DNA from: Candidatus Uhrbacteria bacterium
GTDB lineage: Bacteria > Patescibacteriota > Patescibacteriia > UBA9934 > GWF2-40-263
Reading direction: 5' to 3'
Length of the DNA: 64,000 bases
NCBI GenBank assembly: GCA_016219925.1
Contig: JACRJU010000010.1
Span: 32,147 to 96,146 of the forward strand
In this document: positions 11,106 through 59,652 of the stretch, piece after piece
Layout of the letters: each line of letters opens with the position of its first letter
How positions within the stretch are numbered: the stretch's first letter is position 1
Made by a program: the position numbers and the translations under genes
Notes under the pieces: generated by a model
Told to the model about the DNA's origin: nothing
Database searches by the model: none
What the model saw: the letters and a program-made list of their open reading frames with translations, nothing else

Positions 11106-11504
11106 ATGCAACGTTTTTTCTTGCGCATCGGCGCTCCAGCGATCATCTTTCTTTTGAGCGCCCCGTCTGCTTTGGCAGAGTCCGAAGCGGCAAAAGCGCT
11201 AAAGGGCGGACTCACAGATACCGCCAAGTTGGCTGGCTACCAATCAACATCTTTGCCTGTCATCATTGGAAATGTCATCAAGGCTTTGTTGGGTGTGGTC
11301 GGTATTATTTTCCTTTTGATTACCATCTATGCCGGTATTATGTATATGACGGCCGCGGGAGATACCGGAAAAGTCGACAAAGCAAAAAAAATGCTCACGC
11401 AATCGCTTATTGGCCTGGTGATCATCATAGGCGCCTATGCCTTTGCCAATTTCGTTGTGACTCAACTGGCTGTAGCAACAACGGCGGCACCAGTAAAAAA
11501 ATAG
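11106..11504 (+). CDS. TrbC/VirB2-like pilin family paralog 4
   Basis: 'YAGIMYMTAAGDTGKVDKAKKMLTQSLIGLVIIIGAYAFANFVV'. Confidence 0.55.
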   Translation: MQRFFLRIGAPAIIFLLSAPSALAESEAAKALKGGLTDTAKLAGYQSTSLPVIIGNVIKALLGVVGIIFLLITIYAGIMYMTAAGDTGKVDKAKKMLTQSLIGLVIIIGAYAFANFVVTQLAVATTAAPVKK

Positions 11505-11505
11505 T

Positions 11506-11901
11506 ATGAAAACCTTTTCAAGATGGCTGCTCATCGGAATATTTGTCTTGCTTCCAGTTTCTGCCTGGGCCGGCCTTCTTGATTCGCAACTAAGTACCGT
11601 AGGCAGTCAATTAGGAAAAGACGGTGGGGTCCCAACGAGTCTCCCCGTATTTATCGGTGGACTCATTAATGTCGTTTTATCGGTTCTTGGTCTCGTCTTT
11701 CTCGTTCTCATCGTGTATGCTGGATACATGTGGATGACGGCTTCAGGCGATTCAACCAAAGTTGATAAGGCCAAAAAACTTATTGGACAGGCTCTCATCG
11801 GCATGATCATTGTTATCGCTTCCTATGCGATCAGCGCGTTCGTGATCGACCGAATTTCAGGCGCAATTACGGTAGCGCCGGCGGCAGCCCCCACAAAATA
11901 A
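11506..11901 (+). CDS. TrbC/VirB2-like pilin family paralog 5
   Basis: 'YAGYMWMTASGDSTKVDKAKKLIGQALIGMIIVIASYAISAFVI'. Confidence 0.55.
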   Translation: MKTFSRWLLIGIFVLLPVSAWAGLLDSQLSTVGSQLGKDGGVPTSLPVFIGGLINVVLSVLGLVFLVLIVYAGYMWMTASGDSTKVDKAKKLIGQALIGMIIVIASYAISAFVIDRISGAITVAPAAAPTK

Positions 11902-11923
11902 CTTTCTTGAATCTTAATTATCT

Positions 11924-12316
11924 ATGAAAAATCTCTACTACACTTTCAGCGCCTGGATTTCCGTCTTGGGCCTGTCGCTTTTGCCGGCAAGCGCCATGGC
12001 TCAACTTAAACCATCAACAGATGCGGCGAGTGATCTTGGTAAGATCGGCAAGAAACTCGGCAACGAGACTCCAAACGATCTTCCAAACCTCATTGGCGGA
12101 CTCATCAACATGTTCCTTTCGATTCTCGGCATCGTCTTTGTGGTGCTGGTGATCTATGCCGGATACCTTTGGATGACGGCATCTGGCGACGCTACTAAAG
12201 TTGATAAAGCCAAAAAACTGCTTGGCCAGGCCATCATTGGAATCATCATTATTGTGGCGGCCTACGCGATCAGCACGTTCGTTATTAATAGGATCGTCGG
12301 AGCGGTTAAACCGTAG
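11924..12316 (+). CDS. TrbC/VirB2-like pilin family paralog 6
   Basis: 'YAGYLWMTASGDATKVDKAKKLLGQAIIGIIIIVAAYAISTFVI'. Confidence 0.55.
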   Translation: MKNLYYTFSAWISVLGLSLLPASAMAQLKPSTDAASDLGKIGKKLGNETPNDLPNLIGGLINMFLSILGIVFVVLVIYAGYLWMTASGDATKVDKAKKLLGQAIIGIIIIVAAYAISTFVINRIVGAVKP

Positions 12317-12328
12317 ATTTAAAAAAGG

Positions 12329-12356
12329 CAGAGCCGCGAGGCTCTGTTTTTATTTT
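12329..12356 (+). terminator. Rho-independent terminator after the pilin paralog array
   Basis: Hairpin cagagcc-gcga-ggctctg followed by tttttatttt. Confidence 0.6.
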
Positions 12357-12414
12357 GAAAATAAACATCCCCTGACCGACTCCACGTGAGGTGGATATCG
12401 ACCAGGGGATAGGA

Positions 12415-13344
12415 TCAGCGCTTCCACCCGTTAGTGGCGTGGGTGATGCGCCGATCAAGGCTCTCGACGCGGTCGAGTTCGACCCGGACCGCGTTGCCCC
12501 ACAGAGTCTGGGGCGGCAGGCCGGGGATCTCGACCAGACTGCCGGTCGGAGCCAGGTAGATGATCTCGATGCGGTCGCGTGGGCCGACCGCCGAGATATA
12601 GAGCTCGTCGTAGGCGGCCGGGGCGACCGCGCTGTACGGGGTGCGGTCCGGACGACCGTCCCCATCGAGATCGGCGTAGACCGTCTCGATCGAGCCATCC
12701 GCATTGCCGATCGGGATGGCAACCCCGTTGCGCTTCACGAGAACCCGCGAGAATTGGGGGTTTCGGTGGGTGTGCCAGCTGACCCCACTGGCAAGCCCGA
12801 AGACTTGCAAGTAGGGGCCAACCACCTCGAAGGTCGTGGCGGCGTATGCCCCTGGGGTCGGGATGACCCTGTAGGGCGCGCCACCGACCATCATCGTGGA
12901 CGGTGGTAGGCCTGCGGGCGGACGGTGGTAGGCCTGCGGCTCGGCTGGTTGAGCCTTGCCGTCCTTCGCCTTCCGATCGCGGAGCGTCCGAAGACGCGCC
13001 TTGATCTGCTGCCTGGCTGTGCCAGCGGCAGGCAGCTCCGGCTGCTTGGCGTCCGGCACTGCCTGCTGGGACGCGAGCTTGGCTTTGGTCGCCTCGAGCT
13101 CCTGACGGAGCCGATCGACTTCGGCCTTGAGCCCGCTCTCGCCGGCTTTGAGCCGCGCCTCCAGGATCTTCACGTTCTGATCCTGGATGCACAGCAGTTG
13201 CTTGAGGCGGGCACTCGAGTCGGTTCCGGCGTAGCGGGCCTCGCAGAATGCGACGGCCTGCTTCGCTTCCTTCGACTCTTCAGCGTGCAGGGTGGCGGGG
13301 ACGAACAGGAACAGGGCGGCCGCGATGGCCATTTCGAACTTCAT
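12415..13344 (-). CDS. Secreted coiled-coil protein of unknown function (high-GC island 1)
   Basis: Signal peptide 'MKFEMAIAAALFLFVPATLHA', a coiled-coil stretch, then a C-terminal domain of unknown family. Strong GC-rich third-position bias. Antisense ORFs in the same region are Arg/Pro/Gly-rich junk. Confidence 0.5.
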   Translation of the reverse strand: MKFEMAIAAALFLFVPATLHAEESKEAKQAVAFCEARYAGTDSSARLKQLLCIQDQNVKILEARLKAGESGLKAEVDRLRQELEATKAKLASQQAVPDAKQPELPAAGTARQQIKARLRTLRDRKAKDGKAQPAEPQAYHRPPAGLPPSTMMVGGAPYRVIPTPGAYAATTFEVVGPYLQVFGLASGVSWHTHRNPQFSRVLVKRNGVAIPIGNADGSIETVYADLDGDGRPDRTPYSAVAPAAYDELYISAVGPRDRIEIIYLAPTGSLVEIPGLPPQTLWGNAVRVELDRVESLDRRITHATNGWKR

Positions 13345-13419
13345 GGATTTCTCCTTGTGGTCGGACGTGCCGACCGTCTTCGTCTTTCGAGACGGCCGGC
13401 ACGGACCACCCGAGCCGAC

Positions 13420-14055
13420 CTACTTGCGGTGAACTCGGAGGAGCTCGTTGAGGTCGCGGCGGTTGCACGCCGCTTCCTCTGCGGGGTTGGCGGGCGGGCG
13501 ACCACCAGGGCACTGGCTCGTGCTCGCGGGCGCGAGCGCTTGCGGAGGTGGCGGGCCGTAGTAACCCGGGGCGACCGCTTCACCGAGCGGCGGGAGGTAG
13601 CCTCTGGCTCCTGCCCGCCATCCAGCCTCGATCATGGTCGTCTCCTGGCTGGCTCCCGGATAGTAGACAGCCTGACCGTACGGCCCGTAGCCGCCGGCGG
13701 CGTAGGGGTAGGCCCCCATGCCGTACGGCCCGTAAGCGCCGTAGTAGCCCGTGTACCCGGAGGTCACCTGACCTCCGCGGGTGCTCACCTGCGTGGGCAC
13801 CCCCTTGTCAACCGACGCGCGGGCCGTTGCGGCCGCGCGCTCGGCCGCATCGCCGTCATGACGCGTACGCTCGAGCTGGTCGGCGGCGGCAAGGAGCGCT
13901 GCCGCTCCCCCGGTGGTGGCCAGATCCTGGTGGACCTGGACCGAACCGATGACCCGACCGCTTGCGTCGGTGAGGTCGCGCTTGAGCGCGACGCTCGCGC
14001 ATCCCGTGAGGGCGGCGAGCACGATGGCGAGGATGGTCTTCATCTGCTTCTCCAT
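13420..14055 (-). CDS. Lipoprotein with Gly/Tyr-rich repeat region (high-GC island 1)
   Basis: Lipobox 'LAALTGC'. Low-complexity 'YTGYYGAYGPYGMGAYPYAAGGYGPYG'. Same strand and same composition as the downstream gene. Confidence 0.5.
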   Translation of the reverse strand: MEKQMKTILAIVLAALTGCASVALKRDLTDASGRVIGSVQVHQDLATTGGAAALLAAADQLERTRHDGDAAERAAATARASVDKGVPTQVSTRGGQVTSGYTGYYGAYGPYGMGAYPYAAGGYGPYGQAVYYPGASQETTMIEAGWRAGARGYLPPLGEAVAPGYYGPPPPQALAPASTSQCPGGRPPANPAEEAACNRRDLNELLRVHRK

Positions 14056-14210
14056 GTCGACTCGCCTGCGGCTGCCGACTCAATTGCCCTGAAAAGGACG
14101 GTTTGTCCCAATTTGGGAACGTAGAAATATACCATAAAATTGCCTTTTTGTCAATAAATCCAACGAAAAAACGCCCTTTTAGGACGTTTCCTCAAACATT
14201 TAAAAACGGG

Positions 14211-15497
14211 CTAACGCAAGTATCCCCAATTATGCAAAAGATCCGAATCTCTCTCCCAACGGTCCCCGATATCCGTGCGGTAATACATATTAGGCACCAT
14301 GACGTTTTGCACACGGTTATACACCTGTTGTTGGGCGGCCTTCATCGTGGCCCCAGTCCCGGCAACCGTCATCACCGCCCCGGCATGCCCAGCCACAACC
14401 CACTGACCGTTTAACACTTTCACCTCCTCAATATGAATCCCATCAAGCGTGTTGCGGCGCAGATAAATCGCGGCATCTTTTGAGTACGTTTCAAATGCTT
14501 TATGGTCATCAAACGGATATGGCGGCGTGCGCAAACGGACTCCGACCTGGAACCCTTTTTTTGTTTTGATCGCAAAGCTCTCACGATTGGCTAGCCGATA
14601 GAGGAGCTCGGACATGGGCATGAGCAGTCCCTCGTGCTGGATCGAAATCGTCGGGTAACCAAAACGGCTTGTGAACTCAAGCGGATAAATGCCGTTCCCG
14701 TTGACGATACAGTTAAGATCGAAGTAGCCAACATATCCCTCGCGCGAAAGCGTCTCTTCCATTTTTAGAAGCGTGGCGTTGAACAATCGGTTGGGCTCGG
14801 ACCAATACATGGACGTTCCCATTTCCCCAGTCGAGATCCCGAGGTTCCCAGGAAATAATTTTTTGTGCTCAAAGTTGATGTTAATCGGGGACAAAAACCG
14901 ACTGCCATTAAAGAACGCTCCAACGGCCACTTCCACACCGGAAACGTGTTTTTGTAGTTGAAACACTTTGATCTTTTTAAGCCACACCCGCTTATACGCC
15001 TCCATAATGCCAATGACATCACTGCCGTCGTCTTCCGTACCGACAAATAGAAGGCGTTTGAGGTTGGCCGCCTCGCCGCTTGGCTTGAACACATAGCGTC
15101 CGGGATGCGCGCGGACATATGCAATGGCCTCATCAAAATCCGCGAAGGTTTGATAAGACAAAATCGGAATGCCATGCTTTTTAAGCTCTTCTTGACCAAA
15201 ACCGCGATCATCTTCGAGCTGGTCGGTGTAAGCCGTCCCTCCGATCACCGCTTTGCCGGTGCGGCGCAGACGATCCGCTTTGGCTCCCAAGCCAAGCACA
15301 TCGTCAAACACAACCACATCTGCCCAATCCACCTCCTTCTTCCAATCCTCTACCTTTTCGATGAGCCCATCGCCGACGTCCTGTGACGCATCAGAGTCAA
15401 CGTACATCTTCACGCGGTGACCCTCACGACTCACCTGCCAGGCTACATCGACACACAAGGCATCGAGTGTGACAAACAAAAAATTTTTCGAGTCCAT
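14211..15497 (-). CDS. ATP-grasp enzyme, phosphoribosylamine--glycine ligase (PurD)-like
   Basis: 'YVFKPSGEAANLKR', 'GYVGYFDLNCIVNGNGIYPLEFTSRFGYP' parallel PurD 'IVIKADGLAAGKG...GFLYAGLM...KVIEFNCRFGDPE'. Host-like GC. Confidence 0.5.
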   Translation of the reverse strand: MDSKNFLFVTLDALCVDVAWQVSREGHRVKMYVDSDASQDVGDGLIEKVEDWKKEVDWADVVVFDDVLGLGAKADRLRRTGKAVIGGTAYTDQLEDDRGFGQEELKKHGIPILSYQTFADFDEAIAYVRAHPGRYVFKPSGEAANLKRLLFVGTEDDGSDVIGIMEAYKRVWLKKIKVFQLQKHVSGVEVAVGAFFNGSRFLSPININFEHKKLFPGNLGISTGEMGTSMYWSEPNRLFNATLLKMEETLSREGYVGYFDLNCIVNGNGIYPLEFTSRFGYPTISIQHEGLLMPMSELLYRLANRESFAIKTKKGFQVGVRLRTPPYPFDDHKAFETYSKDAAIYLRRNTLDGIHIEEVKVLNGQWVVAGHAGAVMTVAGTGATMKAAQQQVYNRVQNVMVPNMYYRTDIGDRWERDSDLLHNWGYLR

Positions 15498-15532
15498 ATA
15501 TGTTGGTCATTATAGACGCATGAAAATGGAAG

Positions 15533-15591
15533 TCAAAAAATTCTGTAAAAGAAAACGACGGCAGCAATCCTTGGGAAGGAAAGCTGCCGTC
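15533..15591 (-). terminator. Rho-independent terminator downstream of the island-2 gene (minus strand)
   Basis: On the minus strand, 9-bp stem gacggcagc/gctgccgtc is followed by a T-rich run. Confidence 0.5.
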
Positions 15592-15599
15592 AGAAGCGG

Positions 15600-17600
15600 C
15601 TACTTGCAGCCGAAGGCCTGACGACCTTCATAGCTAAGCGCCGCGCAGTCGACTCCGTTGGTGTGCGTGTGCGGCTTGGAAGCCGAACGCGCGCTGGACG
15701 AAGTCGGGGGCGTCGTGGCGAAGGGGTCCATCGTGTGGTGACCCACGAACCACGGAACGCTCACCGCGACCATGAGTGCGCAGAGGAAGACCGCGAGGTG
15801 GCCCACCAGGGGGTTACTCCCTTGAGTCACGTTCAGGATCGATCCTGACTGCACCCGTGTCTGTGCGAGCCGGCGCACGAGCCAGTACCCGGGCAGGTAC
15901 ACGAGCGTGAAGAGGACCGCGCTCGCAACCCACTGATGAGTCCCGAGGAAGCTGAGGCTTGCACCCCAGGCCGCGACAGTCGCGCCCCAGACGGCTTGCG
16001 GCCATCCGTGACGGATCATCCAGTCTGCGGCGATGATCCCGATCGTCACCAGCCACCCGTACTGCGCGCCCCGAAGAGCAAGCAGTTGGGCCTTGGCCGG
16101 CGCGCCCGCGACCTTGAAGCCCATCCCGATGCACACGCCGACGAAGGCGAGGCCCAGGATGACGACGCGTGCGCTGAGCGACACACCGACCTCCGGGATG
16201 AGGCCCAGAGCGATCAGGTACGCCGGCATCAGCATGAAGGTGAACCTCCAGCCGAATTCGGCGAGCCAATCGGCGGGCCACCCGAGCACACTGACAACCA
16301 GGGGGTGGAGCAGACGCTGCCAGATCCGCAGCGTAAAAAACATGATGATCAGCACCGTCGCGCAGATGATCGCGCGCAGGCTGTGGTACATGCTCGGGGC
16401 ACTGAAGAGGCTCGAGAGCATCCACCAGAACGCCGTGAGGAACATCACCACGGTCGCCAGGTTGAACACCACGATCCCGACCGCCGAGCCGTAGAGCAGG
16501 GCTTTGAGGGTCCCGCTCATGGCGCCGCGGTTGTGCCAGGCGCTCGAAGCGCCGCGCAGGGCCTTGTGCCAGAGCGTGAGCTCCGCACCCAAGGCCGTGT
16601 CGAACGCGGCGATGATGTCGTCGAGATCTTCGGGGTTGAACCGGTCCTCGGGGGTCGCACGCGGATTGTAGTACTCCGCGAGCGTCCTGAGAAACGGCAC
16701 GCCCTTCTTGTCGACGACGTCCTTGACGATGTCCTCGCGCAGGGCGTACTGCAGGGCCGTTCCCTGCCGCACGCTGCGGCTGATGAGCAGGAAGAAGCGC
16801 CGAACCTCGGGTCCGACCGCCTCCCACCACTCGGCGGGCTTCCTCAGAAGACCCTCGAGGATCTTGAGCTCTACGGCGCTGACGCGCTGGGTATCCCCCA
16901 TCTGCGCGATCGCTTCCGCGAGCTTCAGGACCTCGTGCGGGAAGGACTCGGCCGGCACACGCTCGGTGCGAGGCTGTTGGCCCTTGCCACCGCCGACCTG
17001 CTTGGTCGTGGCTTTGTGGGTGTCATCCCAGACGCTCTTGTAGAGCGCCCAGGTCGGATCCAGGATGACGGGCACCTGGTCGGCACCCACCCGAATCTTG
17101 CCGTCAGAGTCCCGGGCCGGAACGAAGATCTTACCCGGAACGAGCCGGCTGACAACAACCCAGTCAAGAGTCTGGTTGGCATCAGCGTCTGCGACGCCGG
17201 GGTCGGAGCGGGCCGCGTCGACCTCGCGATCGATCTGGCTCGCGGCATCCGCGTACCCGGTGAACACGCCCAACAGGGCGTGTGGGCCAACCTCCTTGAG
17301 GAGGAGCTTGGCCTCGCGAACGACCGGACGGGTGTCGCCCGGAAGAATCCGCTCGACGAAGTCGCTCTTCTTGAGCAAGGCCGCGACGGCCGAGCCCGCG
17401 AGTGGGAGGGTGAACCCGGGCATGGTGCGCGCCAGGGCCATGACCGGCCCGGCCGCTCCGAAGATGCCCTTGAGCGACCGCTTGGCGATCGCCTTGCCGG
17501 ACTCTCCAGCACCCGCACCCTCGGTGAGCTCGCGCTCGAGGTGCTGGTGCACGGCCTGTTCGGCGGCCTCTTCGGCCATCAATCGAAGAAACTCGTTCAT
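15600..17600 (-). CDS. Large polytopic membrane protein of unknown function (high-GC island 2)
   Basis: 666 aa. A soluble N-terminal domain of about 350 aa is followed by about 7-9 hydrophobic helices. GGAG RBS upstream. Very GC-rich. Confidence 0.5.
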   Translation of the reverse strand: MNEFLRLMAEEAAEQAVHQHLERELTEGAGAGESGKAIAKRSLKGIFGAAGPVMALARTMPGFTLPLAGSAVAALLKKSDFVERILPGDTRPVVREAKLLLKEVGPHALLGVFTGYADAASQIDREVDAARSDPGVADADANQTLDWVVVSRLVPGKIFVPARDSDGKIRVGADQVPVILDPTWALYKSVWDDTHKATTKQVGGGKGQQPRTERVPAESFPHEVLKLAEAIAQMGDTQRVSAVELKILEGLLRKPAEWWEAVGPEVRRFFLLISRSVRQGTALQYALREDIVKDVVDKKGVPFLRTLAEYYNPRATPEDRFNPEDLDDIIAAFDTALGAELTLWHKALRGASSAWHNRGAMSGTLKALLYGSAVGIVVFNLATVVMFLTAFWWMLSSLFSAPSMYHSLRAIICATVLIIMFFTLRIWQRLLHPLVVSVLGWPADWLAEFGWRFTFMLMPAYLIALGLIPEVGVSLSARVVILGLAFVGVCIGMGFKVAGAPAKAQLLALRGAQYGWLVTIGIIAADWMIRHGWPQAVWGATVAAWGASLSFLGTHQWVASAVLFTLVYLPGYWLVRRLAQTRVQSGSILNVTQGSNPLVGHLAVFLCALMVAVSVPWFVGHHTMDPFATTPPTSSSARSASKPHTHTNGVDCAALSYEGRQAFGCK

Positions 17601-17776
17601 CTCTATCTCCTGTGCGGCTCTTGGCCGCGCAATGGGTTTGGAACACGTGAAAAGGGCGAAAAAAACCTTTTCTCCAATGCGCGTTGCCGCACACAGAAGG
17701 GACTTTTATATCATATTTCGGCCGTTTTGTCAACGGCCAATGACTCATTTTTCTTAAATTCCTTCATAAGTCACCC

Positions 17777-17851
17777 AGTGGGTAATAAGAGATTTGTGAC
17801 CTTGTCTTCGGGCCGACGGACTCATCGCCGTCGTTCCCTCCGACATGGTCA
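17777..17851. repeat. 75-bp palindromic element with perfect 15-bp terminal inverted repeats
   Basis: aagagatttgtgacc (17777-17791) and ggtcacaaatctctt (17837-17851) are exact reverse complements. The spacer holds an internal cgacgg/ccgtcg stem. Confidence 0.6.
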
Positions 17852-17979
17852 CAAATCTCTTTAGGGCTGTGAAGAATAAACGAGTCACAGCCAGTGGGGA
17901 GGCGGCCATGGGGCCCCCACTGACCTTCTCTTTGTGGGCTTCAAGCGAACCCAAGCGGGTGGTCGAAAAGACAAAAGGG

Positions 17980-19152
17980 TTATTTGAATTCAGACGCACG
18001 ACGCTTCTCCTGAATCATTTTGGTTATAATCGGCCGATCGGTGTTGCGCCCGACAAGCACGGCGCCAATAAGCTGGCCTGCCCGAGAAAAAAGTTGTGTG
18101 ATGCCTCCCTGCTCAACCGAACCCACCAACCGAACTTCATCGGCATGCGCGCGCGACACATCACCCACAAAAATAATTTCCAAACCAAGAGCGTTTGTGG
18201 CGTAAGAAGAAACCAAAGAGAACACAGTCTTCTCCCCAGCCATATTCTTTGCCACCACACGTCCCTGCATCTGCGCATTCATCCAGTTACCCACGCGCAC
18301 ATGACGGCCAACATTGATATCGTAAAACTCGGCCACATCGCCAGCCGCAAAAATGTTTGGCTCTGATGTCTGTAAAAATTCATCACACACGATGCCCGCC
18401 TCAACCTTCACTCCTGCTTCGCGCAACCATCCATCATCCGATTCGATCCCAATTCCCACTCCAAGAATGGTGCAAGGATGCTCACCGAGCGAACTGATAA
18501 ATCCGGTGAGTTCGCGCTCCCCCATGGTATCGACAAAAAGTCCGCCCGGATGGAGCTCAACACCCTTCTTGATTAAATGTTGATTGATAAGACGCCCCAC
18601 TTCGGGCTCGAGCCCTTTAGACCAAAAATGGTTTCCTCGAAAAATAACGGTTGTCGGGATCCCAAAATGGGCAAACAAGTTGATGTACTCACAGGCGATA
18701 AACCCACCGCCGTAAACGCCGCCACGGCAAGATGATCCCTGCTCGGCAAGTAGTTGATTCAAATGATCCGCGTCATCAAGCGTACGTAAATAAGAGACAC
18801 CGCGCACATCCAATCCGAGAGTACGCAGTTCGCCTCCGGTTGCGATGAGTAGTTTGTCATAGGGGAGTTCGCGGCCATCTGAGAGTTCGACGAAGGTATT
18901 TTTCGGGTCCAGTTTTACAACCGAAATTCCGCGCACCCACTCAATCTTTTGTTCTTCATACCACGACTCTTTCTTCAAAAAGACCCGCTCGCGCGGAATT
19001 TTCCCTTTCAAATAATGCGGCAACAGCACCCGCGAATAGAGGGCGTGCTGTTCCTCACTCACAAGCGTAATCTCATCGCTGGAATCGAGCTTGCGCAATT
19101 CTTCCACGGCCGTTGTTCCGGCAATGCCTCCGCCGATGATGAGATAGCGCAT
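17980..19152 (-). CDS. FAD-dependent pyridine nucleotide-disulfide oxidoreductase (ferredoxin/rubredoxin reductase-like)
   Basis: 'MRYLIIGGGIAGTTAVEELRK' is a Rossmann GxGxxG fold with two dinucleotide-binding regions. Start trimmed to the internal ATG at 19152. Confidence 0.75.
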   Translation of the reverse strand: MRYLIIGGGIAGTTAVEELRKLDSSDEITLVSEEQHALYSRVLLPHYLKGKIPRERVFLKKESWYEEQKIEWVRGISVVKLDPKNTFVELSDGRELPYDKLLIATGGELRTLGLDVRGVSYLRTLDDADHLNQLLAEQGSSCRGGVYGGGFIACEYINLFAHFGIPTTVIFRGNHFWSKGLEPEVGRLINQHLIKKGVELHPGGLFVDTMGERELTGFISSLGEHPCTILGVGIGIESDDGWLREAGVKVEAGIVCDEFLQTSEPNIFAAGDVAEFYDINVGRHVRVGNWMNAQMQGRVVAKNMAGEKTVFSLVSSYATNALGLEIIFVGDVSRAHADEVRLVGSVEQGGITQLFSRAGQLIGAVLVGRNTDRPIITKMIQEKRRASEFK

Positions 19153-31153: not shown

Positions 31154-32290
31154 TTATGAACGAATAGGCATGAGCACATACCGGTACGCCTGTGTGCTCT
31201 GTGCGGGACTGATAAGACAGGGGTTGGCCCCATCAATCATTTCAAAGACCACCTGATCTGAAACGATCGCTTGCAGGCCATCGAGGAGATAGCGATAATT
31301 TACCGAAACTGTGTTTGGCTGTCCAGAAATTTCTGCGCCGCAAGAGCTGATGTTATCCCCACGGGTTGCGTCTGTCGCCTGAACATGGAGAGCCTCCGCG
31401 GTGGGTTCAAAAGCCAAAGTGACGTCAAATAAGCCATTTTTTGAGAATAAACTAGCGGTTTTTACAGCTTTTATAAAGTCTTCTTTATCCAAAATAGCCC
31501 GTGTTGAAAACTGTTTTGGGATAATCTGCTGGTAATCAGGATAATTTTCATCAATAACCCGTGAAATAAGTTCAACCGGACCAAAAATAAATACCGCCTG
31601 ACTTTGCGAAAGCTGTAAGCTGACAGTTGTTGGTAGTTCAACATCATCTTTGAAAACGGAAAGAACGCGTAGAACCTCCGAAAGCGTCTTGGCTGGGACA
31701 ACGACACTTCTTTCTTGTCCTGGACGATCCAGAAGCGTTATGGTGGCTTCTGAGAGCCTGTAGGAGTCGGTTGCAACCAGCTTCAAACGCCCCTCACTCT
31801 CAAATGAAGAAAAATGCATGAGCACACCCGTGAGTTCTGGACGTGATTCGTTTGTTGCTACCGCAAAGAGGACTTGAGATAAGGCGGCTTTTAAATCACC
31901 AACAGGAATCCGATAGATCTCCTCCCCATTCACTTTTGGCACAAGAGGGAATTCAGAAGCAGAAAGTCCGTTGATTTTTGTTTTGTGGTTTCCGCACTGC
32001 AAACGAATATTATCATCATCCGTATCAAGACGAATTGTTTCGCTTGGAAGGAGCGAAACGTAATCATAAAATAGTTTTGATGGGACGGTGTGCTCCCCCG
32101 GTTCATCAACTTTGCCTCTCACAACACAATTCACTGCAATTTCTAAATTTGTCGACGTAAATTTTATTGTTCCCCCCTCCGCTTTAACAAGAACATTTTG
32201 TAAAATCGGTAAATTAACGTTCTTCGTCATGAGATGGCTTGTGATGCTCAACCCTTGATGGAGATTCTCTTTCGTACAAGACAGTTTCAT
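31154..32290 (-). CDS. dnaN: DNA polymerase III beta sliding clamp
   Basis: 378 aa, lies downstream of dnaA, with a three-domain repeat pattern. Confidence 0.85.
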   Translation of the reverse strand: MKLSCTKENLHQGLSITSHLMTKNVNLPILQNVLVKAEGGTIKFTSTNLEIAVNCVVRGKVDEPGEHTVPSKLFYDYVSLLPSETIRLDTDDDNIRLQCGNHKTKINGLSASEFPLVPKVNGEEIYRIPVGDLKAALSQVLFAVATNESRPELTGVLMHFSSFESEGRLKLVATDSYRLSEATITLLDRPGQERSVVVPAKTLSEVLRVLSVFKDDVELPTTVSLQLSQSQAVFIFGPVELISRVIDENYPDYQQIIPKQFSTRAILDKEDFIKAVKTASLFSKNGLFDVTLAFEPTAEALHVQATDATRGDNISSCGAEISGQPNTVSVNYRYLLDGLQAIVSDQVVFEMIDGANPCLISPAQSTQAYRYVLMPIRS

Positions 32291-32354
32291 ATTTTTGTTC
32301 TGTATTATTGTTTTTACAAAAGAGATTAATAAATAAAGTAATAGTAGTAAGGGG

Positions 32355-32425
32355 TGTGGATGAAGTGGAAAACAGAAATTTTTAGCTTAATTGAGTGATG
32401 TTTTAGCTTATGGATTTGTGGATGA
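32355..32425. promoter_or_regulatory. Candidate oriC core: two TGTGGATGA DnaA-box-like 9-mers beside an AT-rich stretch in the dnaA-dnaN intergenic region
   Basis: tgtggatga at 32355-32363 and 32417-32425, each one mismatch from TGTGGATAA. 32291-32350 is about 80% AT. Confidence 0.45.
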
Positions 32426-32535
32426 ACTTAGGTGTTTGGTTGTGGAGTCTTGGTGAATATTTTTGAACACTTTATTTATTCACTCTTTCCCCCACCTCTT
32501 TCACAGAGGGTTACCCACGAGAAGTGCACTGTATA

Positions 32536-33927
32536 TTAATAGGTGTAGAGTTTTTGTTTGATCAGTTCAAGATCGTGTTGAAGTTTTTCATCCGCCACAA
32601 GACAATTACAGATTTTTTCATAGGCGTGCATAGCTGTTGTGTGGTCTCGTCCTCCAAGTTCTGTTCCAATAGATGGATAACTCGCTTTCATTTCCTCACG
32701 CATGAGATACATGATAATTTGTCTTGGAAACGCCAGCCGTTTTTGGCGGCTCGCTCCAAGCAGGTCAACGATTTGGACATCGAAATATCCAGCGACTGTC
32801 TGAATAAGCTGTTTGGGGGTAACGGTTTTTCTTGTGTTTGAAGGAGTGAAGCTTGAGAGGATTGGTTTTACAGAATCAAGAGTTGCGCGGGTGTTTTTGA
32901 ATTGATGAAACGCGATAATTTTGTTAAGGGCTCCTTCAAGTTCTCGAACGTTCGTTTGGACAACACTTGCGATGTGATGAACGATGTCGTGTTCGAGTGC
33001 GTAAGTTTTTTCTCGGCACTTGGTTTCTAAAATTGCTACACGTGTTTCAAAATCTGGAGAGCCCACGTCGGCCATCATTCCCTGCTCAAATCTTGAGATA
33101 AGCCGGCTTTCAAGTTGGGGGATGGCTTTTGGTGGACGATCTGAAGAGATCACGATCTGCTTGTTATTTTGGTAGAGCTGGTTGAATGTGTGAAAAAACT
33201 CTTCCTGCGTTCCCTCTTTTCCAGTCATAAACTGGATGTCGTCAACCAATAGAACATCAACCGTTCGGTAACGATTTTTAAACTCAACCATCCGCCCCCC
33301 CTTAAGCGCCCCAATGAAATCATTGGTAAAACGCTCGCTTGTGACATATAAAATGCGCGTTTGTGGGCTTTTTCGTATAAGTTCGTTGCCAACCGCTTGT
33401 AAAAGGTGGGTTTTTCCAAGGCCGACACCACCATAGATAAACAAGGGGTTGTAGACGCCTCCTGGCTGTGCACACACAGCTTGAGCGGCGGCGTGGGCCA
33501 GCTCATTTTGTTTGCCAACAATGAACGTTCCAAAACAGTACTTTCCATTAAGAGAAAATTCCCCTGTGCGAATTTCTTGAGGTTCGTGACTGGTTCTGGG
33601 TTGGTACCCGTCTGATGTTGGTGGTTCGTTCTGCGAAGACCCATCGAACAGCGGAATAATTTGTTGAGGAGCTTGTTGGCGCGCTTCCACGCGGTACGTC
33701 AACTGTTTGATTGTTCCGTTCGTGAGATCCTGCAAAGACTGCATGATTTCTTTTGAATACTTCTTTTCTAGCCAGGCTTTTGTAAAAAGATTCGGAACTC
33801 CAACGATAATGGCATGATCACGCACTTCTGAAATAAAAGTTTGTTTAAACCAGGTGGTGAAATTTGCTTTACTCAATGACAATTCGAGTTCGCCAAGAAC
33901 CGCTTGCCAGAGTTCGTTGGTGTTCAT
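32536..33927 (-). CDS. dnaA: Chromosomal replication initiator DnaA
   Basis: 'GGVGLGKTHLLQAVG', 'VDVLLVDDIQF', C-terminal 'RDHTTAMHAYEKI'. Start at internal ATG 'MNTNELWQ'. Confidence 0.9.
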   Translation of the reverse strand: MNTNELWQAVLGELELSLSKANFTTWFKQTFISEVRDHAIIVGVPNLFTKAWLEKKYSKEIMQSLQDLTNGTIKQLTYRVEARQQAPQQIIPLFDGSSQNEPPTSDGYQPRTSHEPQEIRTGEFSLNGKYCFGTFIVGKQNELAHAAAQAVCAQPGGVYNPLFIYGGVGLGKTHLLQAVGNELIRKSPQTRILYVTSERFTNDFIGALKGGRMVEFKNRYRTVDVLLVDDIQFMTGKEGTQEEFFHTFNQLYQNNKQIVISSDRPPKAIPQLESRLISRFEQGMMADVGSPDFETRVAILETKCREKTYALEHDIVHHIASVVQTNVRELEGALNKIIAFHQFKNTRATLDSVKPILSSFTPSNTRKTVTPKQLIQTVAGYFDVQIVDLLGASRQKRLAFPRQIIMYLMREEMKASYPSIGTELGGRDHTTAMHAYEKICNCLVADEKLQHDLELIKQKLYTY

Positions 33928-33990
33928 ACGGGGCGTAGTGTAGACTACTTGTCCACATGTGAGCAAGTGCGTGTTTCGTGTACAAAGGGG

Positions 33991-34018
33991 TTGATGTTTT
34001 GTGGGTAACTTGTTAATA
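33991..34018 (+). promoter_or_regulatory. Putative rpmH promoter (-35 ttgatg, 16 nt, -10 taatat) overlapping DnaA-box-like tgtgggtaa
   Basis: Sequence motifs upstream of rpmH. ttgtccaca (33949-33957) and tgtgggtaa (34000-34008) are one-mismatch DnaA boxes. Confidence 0.3.
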
Positions 34019-34043
34019 TCTTTGTGCCTAATGTTTTACCCCT

Positions 34044-34190
34044 ATGCCAAAGCGCACACATCAACCAAAGACGCGTCAGCGCGCCAAAGTTCACGGATTT
34101 CGCCAGCGCATGACGACATCAACTGGAAAGAAAGTGCTCAGCCGTCGCCGCGCAAGCGGGCGCAAGCGTTTGAGCGTGAGCGACAAGTAA
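34044..34190 (+). CDS. rpmH: 50S ribosomal protein L34
   Basis: Translates to '[48 protein letters not shown]'. Below the size cutoff of the ORF track. Confidence 0.9.
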
Positions 34191-34191: not shown

Positions 34192-34536
34192 ATGCTTCCC
34201 GCGGCCCATCGGCTTCGTCATGAAAAAGACATCAAAACGCTCCTGGCCAAAGGCAGGAGCGTGTTTGGTCTGTTCATGGGTTTCCGCATTCGTAAAAATA
34301 CTCTTGATGTTTCTCGGTTCGCGGTCGCTGTGGGGACCAAAGTGTCAAAAAAAGCCGTTGTGCGGAATCGTCTACGCCGACAGATTCGCGCGATTTTGTT
34401 TAAACATCTTTCTGCCATTACCCCAGGCTATGATTTTTTGGTTATGGTAAAAAAAGAATCCATTGGAAAAACATCAAAGGAACTCGAAACGGATTTGGTA
34501 AAAACTTTGCGAGGACGAGCTCGCCTATTGCGATGA
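34192..34536 (+). CDS. rnpA: Ribonuclease P protein component
   Basis: '[29 protein letters not shown]', classic position after rpmH. Confidence 0.85.
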
Positions 34537-43651: not shown

Positions 43652-43995
43652 GATGTGGAAGTTGGTCGGGCCTCCAAACGACGTTCGTCAATTTCTTGTC
43701 CGCAGTATTTACAAGTGCCGTAGGTTCCGCCATCGAACATTTTAAGAGCACTCTCGACATCACGAAGAGCCTTTTCGAGTTCTTCTTCCAAGGAAAGATT
43801 GTCGGAGAAGCTCGCGACTTCGGAGGCGTTTTCATCTTCTTTGTCGCCGATATTCTGAAAATCCGTTTCAAATTCGGTTTCTTTTGCTTTTGGATTGCGA
43901 TGGGCAAACTTAGACAACTCCGTCGTCAATCGGTTTTTCTCCTCTTCGAGCGTCGTCTTCATTTTTTCAAGAAACTGCTGGTTCATATCAGTCAA
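43612..43995 (-). CDS. DksA/TraR-family C4 zinc-finger protein
   Basis: 'CKYCGQEIDERRLEARPTSTSCIQC'. Confidence 0.65.
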   Translation of the reverse strand: MTDMNQQFLEKMKTTLEEEKNRLTTELSKFAHRNPKAKETEFETDFQNIGDKEDENASEVASFSDNLSLEEELEKALRDVESALKMFDGGTYGTCKYCGQEIDERRLEARPTSTSCIQCKKTLTQEV

Positions 43996-44554
43996 AAATG
44001 GCTTAGTTTGGATACCTTATCAGCTTTTGGATAAAAAAAGAAGAGGGCAGTGAGCCCATGACAAGTGTTGTTTAAGGCTATGCCCCCAAGGCAGGATTGA
44101 TGGTGGCTTTGGAGGCGTCGGGTTATGGGTTCCATGCTTGAAGCCCATGACTCGACGCCCTTAGAACACAACCGACTCAATCCTAAGGTTCCTACACCAC
44201 CTCTCTACCATTTCATGGTTTTACCTGCGGATGAATCCTGACGGATTCACATCATTGCAGGCGAACCTAGATGTTTCGTTTTTGTTTTTGTTTGGAGGAT
44301 ATCGAAACAGTAGAGCGGCGAGACGTTTTCCGAATAACGCGCGAGCGTGGGGTGCTCACTCACCATTGAAGGCAAGCGTCTTCGGAAAACCTCCCAAGAG
44401 TGTGTAGAAAGAACGAACGATCAGTGGTTGATCGTATTTACATAGTAACAAAAAAATGACGTTTGGTCAATTGTCATTTTTTGCCTGTGATTAGCTTAGA
44501 AGCAGACGTCTTGAAAACAGGATGTGTTCATTATGTATTACTGTAATTGCAAAG

Positions 44555-44594
44555 TTATCCACAGAATCTGTTATTTACCCATAACTTATCCACA
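44555..44594 (+). promoter_or_regulatory. Two perfect DnaA boxes (TTATCCACA) in direct orientation, 31 bp apart
   Basis: ttatccaca at 44555-44563 and 44586-44594, with degenerate ttatttacc between them. Confidence 0.6.
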
Positions 44595-44595
44595 A

Positions 44596-56544: not shown

Positions 56545-57132
56545 ATGCGTACGCGCGTGATTATTGTTCATGGGTGGGGAGGTTTTCCAGAGGAAGGCTG
56601 GTTCCCTTGGCTGAAACAAACATTGGAACAGAAAGGATATACGGTTGAAGTTCCTCACATGCCTCATCCCGATTCTCCGGAAATTTTCCCGTGGGTTTCA
56701 ACACTCGCTCAAGTGGTTGGAGATATTGATGAGCACACGTTTTTTGTTGGGCATAGTATCGGCTGTCAGACGATTTTGCGTTTTTTGGAATCTCTGCCAG
56801 CGGGTCAGACGGCCGCAGGGGCAGTCTTTGTGGCGCCATGGCTTGCTCTTCAGCATTTAGGTGAAGAAGAAATGGAAATTGCCAAGCCATGGTTGCAGAC
56901 GCAGATTGATCTTGTGAAGGTCTTAGAGCATCTTCCAAAGAGCGCGGCGATTTTTTCTGACAATGATCCGTTTGTTTCTATTGAACAGCAGGATATTTTT
57001 CGTGATGAGCTTCATTCGGAAATTGTAATCGAACACAGGCTTGGACACATGAGCGGAGAGGATGGAGTGTCAGAGCTTCCTTCAGTTTTGGTTCATCTTA
57101 TTTCGTTATTTCCGTTGGAGTCGTCGTCTTGA
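56545..57132 (+). CDS. RBBP9/YdeN-family serine hydrolase (alpha/beta fold)
   Basis: 'VIIVHGWGG', nucleophile elbow 'GHSIG'. About 195 aa. Confidence 0.65.
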   Translation: MRTRVIIVHGWGGFPEEGWFPWLKQTLEQKGYTVEVPHMPHPDSPEIFPWVSTLAQVVGDIDEHTFFVGHSIGCQTILRFLESLPAGQTAAGAVFVAPWLALQHLGEEEMEIAKPWLQTQIDLVKVLEHLPKSAAIFSDNDPFVSIEQQDIFRDELHSEIVIEHRLGHMSGEDGVSELPSVLVHLISLFPLESSS

Positions 57133-57173
57133 TTTTTTTTTCTTTCGTTGCTATTCTCTTCGCGTTCGCGCAT

Positions 57174-57249
57174 GGCGGCCATGGTGAAACGGTTATCACA
57201 GCAGGTTGTGGTCCTGTCGTTACGGGTTCGATTCCCGTTGGCCGCCCCA
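57174..57249 (+). tRNA. tRNA-His (anticodon GTG) with encoded G-1 and CCA
   Basis: G-1 + gcggcca...tggccgc-c-cca. Anticodon stem gcagg/cctgt with loop ttGTGgt. T-arm acggg-ttcgatt-cccgt. Confidence 0.75.
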
Positions 57250-57303
57250 CACAAAACCCCCGGCTTTTGCCTGGGGTTTTGTGTGAGAGATAAGAATCGA
57301 ACC

Positions 57304-57322
57304 CGTAACGACGATCAACAAC
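57304..57322. repeat. Inverted 19-nt copy of the tRNA-His variable/T-arm region
   Basis: gaatcgaacccgtaacgac is the exact reverse complement of tRNA positions 57216-57234. Confidence 0.6.
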
Positions 57323-57423
57323 ACGGGTACGATGCTTGAAGTGAGCGAGCGGAGAGGCCGAGCGGAGCTCGGACTATCCCGAGCGAGCGAGAGCAATATG
57401 GGCGCCAGCCCATATTCCCGTTG

Positions 57424-57447
57424 GCCGCCCCACAAAATAGACCCCAG
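57424..57447. repeat. Direct repeat of the tRNA-His 3' end (att-like), embedded in a long hairpin
   Basis: attcccgttggccgccccaca-aaa matches 57231-57251. Forms cccgttggcc...ggccaacggg (57427-57489) enclosing acaaaatagacccca/tggggtctattttgt. Confidence 0.6.
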
Positions 57448-57694
57448 CATGCTGGGGTCTATTTTGTTTGGCCAACGGGAGGTGAAGGGGGCATGTCTCT
57501 TTTCTCTTCATTCTATCCACACTTGACACCATTTTTTCCTTCAGGCATACTTCTGCGGGTCTGCTTGTGAGGTGGCTATTTCAGCCAAAATTGCAGGCAT
57601 CCCGGCTGGCCGGATAGCCAGAGCCAGGCCAAACCGGATCGGTTTCCGGAAAGGCCAAACACCAGAAGCCCCAATGGGGCAACAGAGGCTACAG

Positions 57695-58732
57695 ATGAGG
57701 AACCTGTTTCAGATCGCGGTGGAGAATCTCGGCATCGAGAAGCGTCGCGTCGACATCAACGGCGTCACCGTCACGGCCATCAAGGGCTCGCCCGACAACA
57801 TCGCGCGGGTCATCGGCACCGCCCTGCGCGAGGAGCAGTACGACCTCAGCAACCTGATCGGCATGGGCATCTCCCGCGACGGGCAGATCCACCTGATCGG
57901 CTTCGACCCGGACAACGGCGGCAAGATCTCCAAGGCCGAGCTGCCCGAGAACGAGCTCGGGGGGCTCTACCTCGACGGCTTCGACTATGCGCACTTCGTC
58001 GGCTCGATGAAGGACGGCATCGTCGTCAGCGCGTTCGCCAAGGGCGTCCAGGCGACCCCGCAGAAGGGCCAGGCGCTGGACACCTTCGTCAAGGCCGTCT
58101 TCGCGGACGGCAACGTCATCGGCGCCGAGGACACCACCAACACGGTGCTGCTCATCGGCCGCAAGGGCGACCGCGTGCTGTTCGCGCTCGACACCGAGAA
58201 GCCGGACCTGTTCATGCAGGTGACGACGCCGCAGATGATCGGCGAGCCGCGCTACGCGCTGGTCGACCAGCAGACGCTGCTCATCGCCGAGGCCGGGACC
58301 GACCAGGTCTACGCCACCACCGCGCAGGAGCTCAAGACGCTCTTCGAGACCGGCGTGGAGCCGACCTGGCAGATGGCCGCGCTCAAGGGCCTCAGGATCG
58401 AGGACATCTCGCTCGGCATCGGCGACACCAACACCGTGATCGTCACCGCCATCCAGGGCCGCCAGCGCAAGCTGATCCCGACCTGGGCCGGCTGGAAGCC
58501 GACCAATGAGGGCGAGCAGAAGTTCCTCATGAACCCCAGCTACGCCGACGGCGTCGAGTCCGGCACGACCGCCCCGATCGTCCGCACCACGAGCAGCACC
58601 TACGTCGCGGTCGACGGCAACGGCGGCACCTTCCCGCGCCTCACCATCGGGACGCCCGAGGACATCAACCACCGCCTCGCGGTCATGGTCAAGAAGGCCG
58701 AGACCGGCGGCTACGCCAACCTGGCCCTGTAG
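57695..58732 (+). CDS. Hypothetical protein, 345 aa (high-GC island 5), family not recognised
   Basis: Coherent ORF with GC-rich third-position bias and a GAGG RBS. Start set at 'MRNLFQ'; the ORF track runs from 57572, but that start is read as a GTG alternative. Antisense ORF is Arg/Gly/Ala junk. Confidence 0.5.
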   Translation: MRNLFQIAVENLGIEKRRVDINGVTVTAIKGSPDNIARVIGTALREEQYDLSNLIGMGISRDGQIHLIGFDPDNGGKISKAELPENELGGLYLDGFDYAHFVGSMKDGIVVSAFAKGVQATPQKGQALDTFVKAVFADGNVIGAEDTTNTVLLIGRKGDRVLFALDTEKPDLFMQVTTPQMIGEPRYALVDQQTLLIAEAGTDQVYATTAQELKTLFETGVEPTWQMAALKGLRIEDISLGIGDTNTVIVTAIQGRQRKLIPTWAGWKPTNEGEQKFLMNPSYADGVESGTTAPIVRTTSSTYVAVDGNGGTFPRLTIGTPEDINHRLAVMVKKAETGGYANLAL

Positions 58733-58776
58733 GCCGCCCCCCCACAACGTCAGCGCACACTCGCGCTGACACGCTC

Positions 58777-58825
58777 GCACCGCTTCTCGGAGCTCCTCCT
58801 CCAAGCGGTGCGTTTTTATTTTCTG
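58777..58825 (+). terminator. Rho-independent terminator after island-5 gene
   Basis: gcaccgctt...aagcggtgc, a 9-bp stem, followed by gtttttattttctg. Preceded by a second hairpin gtcagcgc-acactc-gcgctgac. Confidence 0.55.
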
Positions 58826-58881
58826 TCTAGATTTTCGACAACACTTCCCCTTTTTGCATCTGCACGCTAATGTGACACTAT

Positions 58882-59652
58882 ATGCGTATGCATTATTCGC
58901 CCGATGTCATGGCCGGACTTAGGGCTTTCGGACTTGACGAGAAAGATGTCAAAGTCTATTTGGCAGGCCTTGAGCTTGGACCATCGAGTGTGCTTGAACT
59001 TTCGCGCAGAACACAACTCGCTCGCACAACGCTCTATCCGATTCTGGAGCGTCTCGAACGACAAGGGGTCTTTCGTGTTGGGCTTGAGAAAAAAACAACC
59101 CTCTACATCGCCGAGCCCCCAGCGGTACTCCAGCGCCTGTTGGATGAGCGCGAGGGGGCCTTTGCCAAGGCGTTTCCTCTTTTGGAAGGACTGCGAGCTA
59201 CAGCGGACGATGCGCCCGGGGTGACGATCTACGAGGGATCGGATGGATTCAAGCGACTTTGGAAACAACTCCTGCGTAGTGGAGTTAAGGAATATCGATT
59301 GATCACCACCGGCGTTGGGCTCCTTGATTATGTGAAGGAACCGTATCTCATCAAACAAGTGATTGCGGAACGGCTTGAGCGCGGCATCAAAAGCAAGCAA
59401 CTCATCCCCATGAGCCGTGACGCTAAAAAAATTGTCGAAAAAGATCCCTCTGAACTTCGAGAATCTCGATTTTTGCCCGCGGGCACAACCCTCCCAGCAA
59501 CCGTGATCATTTTTGCCGGCAACATCGCCTTTATTACAACCCGAAAAGAAAACACGATGATCGTTCTGACCTCCGGCGATATTGCTCTGACTTACGCAAC
59601 GCTATTTGATTTGATTTGGGATAAGGCCAATCAAAACCATATCGAGTTTTAA
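58882..59652 (+). CDS. TrmB-family HTH transcriptional regulator
   Basis: N-terminal wHTH 'DVKVYLAGLELGPSSVLELSRRTQLARTTLYPILERLERQGVF', C-terminal TrmB-like domain. Confidence 0.55.
   Translation: MRMHYSPDVMAGLRAFGLDEKDVKVYLAGLELGPSSVLELSRRTQLARTTLYPILERLERQGVFRVGLEKKTTLYIAEPPAVLQRLLDEREGAFAKAFPLLEGLRATADDAPGVTIYEGSDGFKRLWKQLLRSGVKEYRLITTGVGLLDYVKEPYLIKQVIAERLERGIKSKQLIPMSRDAKKIVEKDPSELRESRFLPAGTTLPATVIIFAGNIAFITTRKENTMIVLTSGDIALTYATLFDLIWDKANQNHIEF

Follow-up and report, generated by a model that had tools for sequence, protein, structure and literature searches.

Two kinds of described systems come close to the locus reported here. One comprises the large structured noncoding RNAs (ncRNAs) of bacteria, such as OLE, the raiA motif, ROOL and GOLLD; to our knowledge, an upstream array of DnaA boxes is not known for any of them. 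The other comprises sites where the replication initiator DnaA acts outside the origin, either at promoters (dnaA and nrdAB in Escherichia coli, sda and dnaA in Bacillus subtilis) or at box clusters (datA, DARS1 and DARS2 in E. coli, the DnaA-box clusters or DBCs in B. subtilis). Non-origin box clusters titrate DnaA, box-bound DnaA can block elongating RNA polymerase, and the core of DARS consists of three closely spaced boxes, one of which is inverted. Here we analyse the noncoding stretch upstream of dksA in a 64,000-nucleotide piece of contig JACRJU010000010.1 of a Candidatus Uhrbacteria bacterium (called the window throughout, with positions counted from its first letter). An earlier reading of this DNA, made from the letters alone (the sequence-only reading), had proposed that the stretch is either a secondary DnaA-binding locus or an unannotated ncRNA. 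As judged from sequence conservation, these two alternatives belong together in a single conserved module. The RNA gene is, on the same grounds, an unannotated, real and independent transcription unit, and we favour, with moderate confidence, the view that the whole module is a DnaA-coupled gene for an uncatalogued housekeeping ncRNA of Candidatus Uhrbacteria.

The noncoding stretch covers positions 43987–44595 (609 nt) between dksA and a 431-aa open reading frame (ORF), hyp431. The gene dksA is of the DksA/TraR type, is followed by lspA and starts with the ATG at 43986; its product has 124 aa, the same length as all close DksA homologs, which come from Candidatus Uhrbacteria or Patescibacteria. 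On a crude ORF map, with rnpA counted in the rival gap at 34.5 kb, this is indeed the longest gene-free stretch of the window, as had been claimed for a slightly shorter interval of 600 bp. Its structured part had also been called GC-rich. This holds only relative to the flanks of the element (G+C content 0.32–0.35) and not in absolute terms, as the structured part (0.49–0.51) has the composition of the window (mean 0.503).

The module is conserved well beyond this genome. An alignment of DksA homologs was used to fetch 80 genome loci, and nhmmer with the 605-nt minus-strand query from the window matched 58 of them (E down to 2e-78), mostly over the full length and in every case directly upstream of dksA. 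A profile derived from the resulting alignment found the element in about 73 of the 80 Uhrbacteria/Patescibacteria loci; among the seven profile-negative loci about four have less than 500 nt upstream of dksA. Core motifs are still visible by eye in two loci without a match, L059 and L076. The gene order pnp-hyp431-RNA-dksA-lspA-comM is syntenic across the class. Median identity is about 29% for hyp431 and 49% for LspA; by contrast, the blocks of the RNA are nearly invariant. When metagenomes were scanned with a motif from the RNA alone, most of the 120 stretches obtained were chance matches, but four match the full RNA profile (L081, L129, L166 and L199). The genes dksA-lspA come after the RNA in all four, and pnp-hyp431 precedes it in L081, L129 and L199, L166 being too short upstream. 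In the window the RNA is single-copy. It can be added that hyp431 has an N-terminal hydrophobic, possibly transmembrane (TM), segment as seen by eye, and that its position is kept in 53 loci at the low identity given above.

The two exact direct DnaA boxes, 31 bp apart, that the sequence-only reading had pointed out are confirmed (Table 1). Exact boxes number three in the whole window, compared with an expectation of 0.40, and none of 100 shuffles reaches three. In the homologous loci the pattern is strict: of the 71 loci that extend far enough upstream, 54 have exactly two perfect boxes in the same orientation, all 55 two-box loci show the 31-bp spacing, and the other 410,907 nt of homologous-locus DNA contain just three perfect boxes. 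Box 1 starts 2 nt past the hyp431 stop codon, and each of its nine positions is at least 90% conserved in the 52 homologous loci which, together with the window, make up our 53-sequence alignment. A degenerate third box had also been suggested, and it is best placed at 44523–44532, 31 bp beyond box 2. This element is about 90% conserved, and it is probably a degenerate inverted DnaA box because L059 and L076 carry TTATACACA or TTATCCACA there, in the same position and orientation. The motif TTGAACAC is not enriched in the window (five found, 2.75 expected). The weak box-like element beside box 1 reads TTATnCATA in most homologs (consensus ..tt.t..atAA.. over the 53 sequences). Divergent lineages keep three boxes in the same place with changed orientation.

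The array has offsets of 0, 31 and 62, with the −35 hexamer of the RNA promoter at about 123. A spacing of 31 bp is close to three helical turns, so that all sites would look towards roughly the same side of the helix. Between the end of box 2 and the −35 there are 82–83 bp in 40 of 49 loci and 81–85 bp in 48 of 49, and this intervening sequence varies. Consensus boxes thus stand at a conserved position relative to the promoter, as would be expected of a DnaA-regulated promoter. This fixed geometry is our main argument that DnaA would act on the RNA promoter rather than being parked nearby, and the replication initiator probably controls an RNA of an uncatalogued family. Box enrichment, conservation and GC skew together support the earlier proposal of a secondary DnaA-binding locus away from the origin, in so far as binding can be predicted from box identity. 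The sequence-only reading had stated that it would fall if no covariance model matched and DnaA 9-mers were similarly dense genome-wide. This test splits: no covariance model matches, and the 9-mers are far from uniform in the window and in the homologous loci. The window's only other perfect box (TGTGGATAA, 10474–10482) lies right after a stop codon, in a spacer within an array of pilin genes; this tandem array (9431–12316) consists of at least six paralogous small genes with T4SS_pilin/TrbC domains.

The RNA promoter has the form TTGACC-N14-TGtTACTAT, with a spacing of 17 between the −35 and the −10. Across loci TTGAC is about 99% conserved, and TGnTAtnAT is also kept. The 5′ end of the RNA was placed from the −10 and its 3′ end from the T-run of the terminator, that is, by motifs only. 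Essentially all homologs have the terminator, GGGCC...GGCCC followed by a T-run; its hairpin is simple in some and carries a variable insert in others. The region 44025–44435 folds with −156.5 kcal/mol on the minus strand (z = −8.9; plus strand, z = −6.0). The sequence-only reading had left the strand of the RNA open; in the aligned minus strand 424 G·U cells stand against 92 A·C cells, and this excess identifies the minus strand as the transcribed one. Distances between conserved blocks across the A-rich region show no 3-nt periodicity (residues modulo 3: 16/13/12 and 20/12/9), hence the region is noncoding. A gene for a small protein or peptide was rejected on this ground, and a TIGR or CRISPR-like array was rejected as there are no tandem repeats. 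Around the promoter, an inverted repeat lies over the −35 (44451–44482 in the window), seen as the palindrome TTGACC-N3-GGTCA in at least 19 loci; in subclade promoters the spacer instead holds GTGTTCAA, the reverse complement of the upstream TTGAACAC element. The palindrome and GTGTTCAA suggest an operator for some factor or for DnaA.

Covariation gives the RNA a defined architecture. RNAalifold on the 53 sequences predicted 44 pairs, 36 of them with compensatory changes. Together with a stacked-covariation search this led to a structure of 64 pairs in seven helices, which was then tested. Paired cells make up 92.3% in this structure, compared with 78.0% after shuffling (none of 500 shuffles reaches the real value) and 39–50% in slid registers. 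The covariation score is 0.487, against 0.217 after shuffling and at most 0.146 for slid registers, and double changes occur in 50 of the 64 pairs (37.3 shuffled, 31–37 slid). Fold energy, predicted pairs and covariation thus bear out the earlier suggestion of an unannotated structured ncRNA.

The 5′ end of the RNA is a single-stranded tail with the motif UCGUUCUUU, which divergent lineages keep as GUUCUUUC (L059) and GCUCUUUC (L076); a clade-specific hairpin at 44435–44417, found by scan and fold, precedes it. In domain 1, helix H1 has 14 pairs (92.6% paired, 11 with double changes) and encloses two hairpins, of which one is variable and the other has the conserved loop ACCCCAC on a stem (44359–44354/44346–44341) whose six pairs all show double changes. 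H1 is the long imperfect hairpin noticed earlier; 44322–44334 and 44381–44393 are 92% complementary. Domain 2 is closed by the long-range helix H2, in which CUCUACUGUUU (44315–44305; consensus CUCUACUGUUC) pairs with AAAUGGUAGAG (44213–44203; consensus GAAUGGUAGAG). H2 is on average 96% paired, and the ACU/GGU and GGU/ACC positions of domain 2 are invariant. H2 encloses an A-rich loop (AAACAAAAACAAAAAC at 44293–44278; consensus of the (AAN)n type, AAAACAAAAACAAAA) and helix H3 (44267–44258/44227–44217). The tip of H3 (44248–44232) is the short tgaatcc-tgac-ggattca stem which had been picked out by eye. Domain 3 is a long irregular hairpin. Its helix H4 (44160–44139/44134–44113) has 19 pairs, 92.7% paired and 17 with double changes, and holds a conserved A-C mismatch flanked by G-C pairs. 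The enclosing helix H5 (about 44184–44177 with 44100–44093) varies widely in sequence and keeps its pairing: minimum-free-energy folds have on average 14.9 enclosing pairs, compared with 9.8 when the 3′ flank is shuffled, and at least eight such pairs are found in 49 of 53 sequences (p = 3e-9). This enclosing-pair test took the place of z-scores of duplex energy, which had proved too noisy for H5; when domain 3 was realigned with MAFFT, H5 stayed out of structural register, and the H5 counts are therefore given without per-column values. Lineage-specific expansion segments of about 40 nt were observed in domain 1 (L024:2519-2962) and in domain 2 beside H2 (L056:2514-2932). Their place, at the tips of helices or at junctions, is the one that a structured RNA would lead one to expect.

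Based on these results the following order of events can be proposed. A near-consensus sigma-70 promoter with an extended −10 would start minus-strand transcription at about 44435, as its sequence conservation indicates. The transcript would fold, as covariation indicates, into the single-stranded UCGUUCUUU tail and three domains: domain 1 capped by the CCCCAC loop, domain 2 closed by the 11-bp helix and displaying the A-rich loop, and domain 3 as an irregular hairpin. On the same footing, the intrinsic terminator would release a free RNA of about 400 nt, and dksA-lspA transcription would restart 10–20 nt later. Judging by consensus identity and conservation, DnaA would occupy the perfect pair of boxes as well as the degenerate third one, all phased by 31 bp. 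The fixed geometry suggests that the array sets the output of the RNA promoter and couples the RNA level to DnaA or replication status. The weakest step is the last one. Here we favour an RNA that may act in trans, binding proteins or serving as a scaffold by way of those invariant elements that stay single-stranded. A seed-target search with the complement of the 5′ motif was uninformative (36 one-mismatch matches, 24.7 expected). A further-reaching and rather doubtful possibility is that this is a new class of large ncRNA, confined to Uhrbacteria and related Patescibacteria, whose synthesis DnaA gates directly by way of the helically phased boxes, and which relays replication and DnaA status to gene expression in these bacteria with minimal genomes. 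The relay might run through RNA polymerase, alongside the neighbouring DksA homolog, or through feedback on DnaA.

Table 1. Positions of the module and of the origin-proximal genes in the window
Feature	Position	Strand	Basis or remark
hyp431 ORF, 431 aa	44596–45891	minus	no Pfam match
DnaA box 1, perfect TTATCCACA (TGTGGATAA in the direction of RNA transcription)	44586–44594	plus	exact match
Weak inverted box-like element beside box 1, TTATGGGTA	44576–44584	minus	box-like by eye only
DnaA box 2, perfect TTATCCACA	44555–44563	plus	direct to box 1, 31 bp start to start
Third phased element, aTGAACACA; consensus TTGAACAC(A)	44523–44532	minus	starts exactly 31 bp after box 2
Inverted repeat gCTnA-N4-nAGc just upstream of −35	44482–44494	minus	C, T, A and G conserved to 90% or more over the 53 sequences
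RNA promoter	44442–44470	minus	promoter scan; −35 TTGACC 44470–44465, TG 44450–44449, −10 TACTAT 44447–44442
Structured ncRNA, about 400 nt	44033–44435	minus	fold z, nhmmer/profile conservation, covariation
Single-stranded 5′ motif UCGUUCUUU	44408–44416	minus	invariant G, C and UU positions
Domain 1, helix H1: GGGA.GGUUUUCCGAA with UUCGGAAAAC.GUCUC	44320–44395	minus	14 pairs, covariation
Domain 2, 11-bp long-range helix H2 enclosing A-rich loop and H3	44203–44315	minus	stacked-covariation search
Domain 3, long irregular hairpin, H5 enclosing H4	44093–44184	minus	covariation (H4), enclosing-pair test (H5)
Intrinsic terminator	44033–44087	minus	G+C-rich hairpin GGGGGCA...UGCCCUC, then UCUUCUUUUUUU
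dksA-lspA extended −10 promoter, TGATAAGGT	44014–44022	minus	27 nt before dksA ATG at 43986
dnaN	31154–32290		at GC-skew minimum
dnaA	32536–33966		about 10.6 kb from the boxes

It is important to note that several observations weigh against reading the module as a DnaA-coupled RNA gene. The boxes lie 120–160 bp upstream of the transcription start, which is far for classical activation or repression, and several species have, for the upstream gene, a terminator-like hairpin that separates the boxes from the promoter. As the entire block is syntenic, the co-occurrence of boxes and RNA could partly be due to inheritance. The A-rich loop is missing in divergent lineages and therefore cannot be a universal functional element. 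The ends of the RNA are predicted from promoter and terminator motifs. Finally, RnpA is encoded in the window, yet RNase P RNA was not detected by Rfam in these 64 kb, and an extremely diverged known RNA may escape Rfam alone. In a rival account the array acts on DnaA itself or on the upstream operon, either as the strongest DnaA sink of the chromosome, like datA or the DBCs of B. subtilis, or as a roadblock to read-through from pnp-hyp431, with the RNA as a bystander. We regard this as unlikely, though it deserves serious weight. These are the only perfect boxes nearby, the putative origin having imperfect ones (TGTGGATGA and similar), they begin directly after the upstream stop codon, in some species with a terminator-like hairpin after them, and adjacency within a syntenic block could be inherited. 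However, neither a sink nor a roadblock needs a fixed distance of 82–83 bp to the next −35, which is the distance kept in most loci. Two or three boxes would make a small sink, and the array persists, in rearranged form, where the remaining upstream sequence has diverged.

The position of the RNA raises the question of whether it belongs to dksA. It is always directly upstream of dksA on the same strand, with a median gap of 56 nt between terminator and ATG, and its 3′ terminator hairpin is a trait shared with transcriptional riboswitches. One could thus imagine that it serves dksA-lspA as a cis-acting leader, in the manner of a riboswitch or attenuator of very large size whose terminator gates read-through into dksA. 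This is very improbable in our view. In 56 of 69 loci, compared with 8.8 expected by shuffling, the extended −10 motif TGnTAnnnT stands after the RNA terminator and ahead of the dksA ATG, and the median distance from the end of this −10 to the ATG is 28 nt. A dksA promoter of its own after the terminator, as these motifs suggest, would make the RNA a free transcript rather than a leader. Moreover, both the stem of the terminator and the preceding linker are variable in sequence as well as in length and have no overlap with the conserved elements, no conserved antiterminator alternative is visible in the alignment or by the stacked-covariation search, the gap between terminator and dksA reaches 100–300 nt in several genomes, and the cis-regulatory families of Rfam give no match. 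The related proposal of the sequence-only reading, a DnaA-regulated promoter for the DksA-LspA operon, did not hold either: the boxes are fixed relative to the RNA promoter, and the dksA promoter is separate. We give equally little credence to the idea that the RNA is an extremely diverged or analogous RNase P RNA, transfer-messenger RNA (tmRNA), 6S RNA or signal recognition particle (SRP) RNA which escapes covariance models. Its length of about 400 nt, strong promoter, terminator and class-wide conservation would fit rnpB or ssrA, the product of its neighbour dksA is an RNA-polymerase factor, which would suit a 6S-like role, and rnpA is in the window while the P RNA was undetected there. RNase P RNAs of the Candidate Phyla Radiation (CPR) are diverged and need lowered thresholds, but are still recognisable by conserved features (PMC8172020). 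The searches described next, however, found no family match, no helix joining the ends of the RNA and no tag reading frame. As RnpA is encoded in the window, the P RNA is presumably elsewhere in the genome; the window is 64 kb of a genome which we take to be about 1 Mb, and the canonical RNA genes may lie outside it.

Known families were searched with Rfam 15 at the gathering score, at E ≤ 10 on the region and 10 diverse homologs, and at E ≤ 5 on the whole window. At the gathering score the window yields only four tRNAs, and nothing is found on the element, either in the window or in 20 homologous loci. No RNase P, tmRNA, 6S or SRP RNA appears at E ≤ 10 in the 11 diverse copies or at E ≤ 5 in the whole window, and matches in or near the region are all chance ones (E > 4). 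Such a scan had been proposed by the sequence-only reading, whose suggestion of a 6S, RNase P or SRP-like RNA is not upheld, as the architecture does not fit either. We take the missing match to mean an uncatalogued RNA and not the absence of an RNA. ARAGORN detected no tmRNA in the window and, at a relaxed threshold, none among the about eight of 53 copies listed. tmRNA was rejected on these ARAGORN results, on Rfam, and on the absent acceptor stem and the absent tag reading frame. The criterion for RNase P RNA (RF00010/RF00011) was a covariance-model match, diverged CPR forms being reported above about 5 bits; the scans would not show matches weaker than their reporting limit of E = 10. The stacked-covariation search revealed no helix joining the 5′ and 3′ ends (P1, acceptor or closing stem) and no P4-type pseudoknot, and the CR-I (GGAAAGUCC) and CR-V (ACAGAAnnCGGCUUA) motifs were not found in the RNA when compared by hand. 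A single CR look-alike, the CAGAACCCG/AACCCGAC element, pairs locally in H4, where 17 of 19 pairs covary. RNase P RNA was rejected on these grounds. 6S RNA was rejected as there are three sequential domains, no closing stem and no RF00013 match. SRP RNA was rejected as Rfam gives no match and the domain IV/helix 8 motif was not seen by eye in the alignment.

The replication origin lies elsewhere. The minimum of the cumulative GC skew, a check that had been recommended earlier, is at about 29–31 kb; together with dnaA and dnaN it puts the origin near 30–34 kb, apart from the boxes. The earlier estimate of 11 kb between dnaA and the boxes is close to the actual distance (Table 1). The putative origin has no perfect-consensus box, only imperfect ones. 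Neither dnaA nor dnaN occurs within 3 kb of the element in any of the 80 loci. With the skew minimum, dnaA and dnaN all placed elsewhere, the element was rejected as oriC, and in practice perfect DnaA boxes should not be taken as a mark of the origin here. A likely oriC consists of 32291–32535, the AT-rich dnaA-dnaN spacer with TGTGGATGA twice, and 33967–34044, the short dnaA-rpmH spacer with TTGTCCACA and TGTGGGTAA. The genes rpmH (about 34045–34180) and rnpA (34192–34536; Pfam Ribonuclease_P, E = 1e-20) are divergent from dnaA. Within dnaA, 33353–33435 has a weak Rfam match to AsdA (31.6 bits, E = 0.015, below the gathering score), which probably reflects conserved dnaA coding sequence; AsdA is an antisense RNA of the dnaA mRNA.

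Some other features of the window were noted on the way. The segment 57175–57440 holds a tRNA-His gene and, after it, a terminator, part of the T-arm in inverted copy (about 57293–57312) and a direct repeat of the 3′ end (CCCGTTGGCCGCCCCACA, about 57416–57433). This looks like an integration or rearrangement scar, and it explains the strong fold signal of 57250–57571 (z about −7.9). The G+C content is 0.59–0.64 at 12000–18000 and 57000–59000, compared with about 0.50 in the genome, and these islands are possibly foreign DNA. The intergenic stretch 17601–17979 in the first island has z of about −6 and a long inverted repeat, GATTTGTGACC...GGTCACAAATC.

Genomes of CPR/Patescibacteria have about 1 Mb and are heavily streamlined. 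Despite this streamlining, the lineage retains 600 bp of noncoding DNA which is better conserved than the neighbouring protein genes. Should the RNA represent a new family, a bacterial branch whose RNA biology is hardly known would gain a housekeeping-grade structured RNA, and annotation would gain a marker which pipelines built on Rfam currently miss. Phased boxes tied to the RNA promoter suggest direct control of a large ncRNA by DnaA. In the literature we found no published description of this RNA and no description of a replication initiator directly controlling a large ncRNA.

Several described systems share single traits with the module. Like 6S RNA (ssrS), the RNA has a housekeeping-type gene with a strong promoter of its own directly upstream of a protein gene, and the neighbour dksA acts on RNA polymerase. 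However, it is twice the size of 6S RNA and has three domains, without the single closed hairpin and central bubble. With the sponge RNAs CrcZ and CrcY it shares a length of about 400 nt and an A-rich (AAN)n loop motif (AAAACAAAAACAAAA), but here there is a single A-rich tract, not five or six, and divergent lineages are without it. OLE, the raiA motif, ROOL and GOLLD are, like this RNA, multi-domain, supported by covariation, several hundred nucleotides long, conserved within a lineage and set in a fixed neighbourhood. OLE in addition has flanking genes for membrane proteins, as is the case here (LspA and, judged by eye from its TM segment, hyp431). In contrast to these four, the RNA described here belongs to CPR/Patescibacteria and has no similarity to them in sequence or covariance model.

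As to the DnaA side of the module, a high-affinity cluster some 10 kb from the origin is reminiscent of datA, DARS1/2 and the DBCs. Three sites with one inverted may resemble the DARS core. The boxes here are 22 bp apart, not nearly contiguous, they number only two or three sites, and they keep a fixed distance to a promoter. The DnaA-regulated promoters differ in that here the product is an ncRNA, the boxes lie at about −96 to −160 and the 31-bp phasing is strict across the class; regulation at this locus is inferred only. What the module has in common with dnaA and nrdAB of E. coli and with sda and dnaA of B. subtilis is the presence of 9-mer boxes upstream of a sigma-70 promoter, a high-affinity pair with a weaker site, and a conserved geometry which implies that DnaA serves as a transcription factor.

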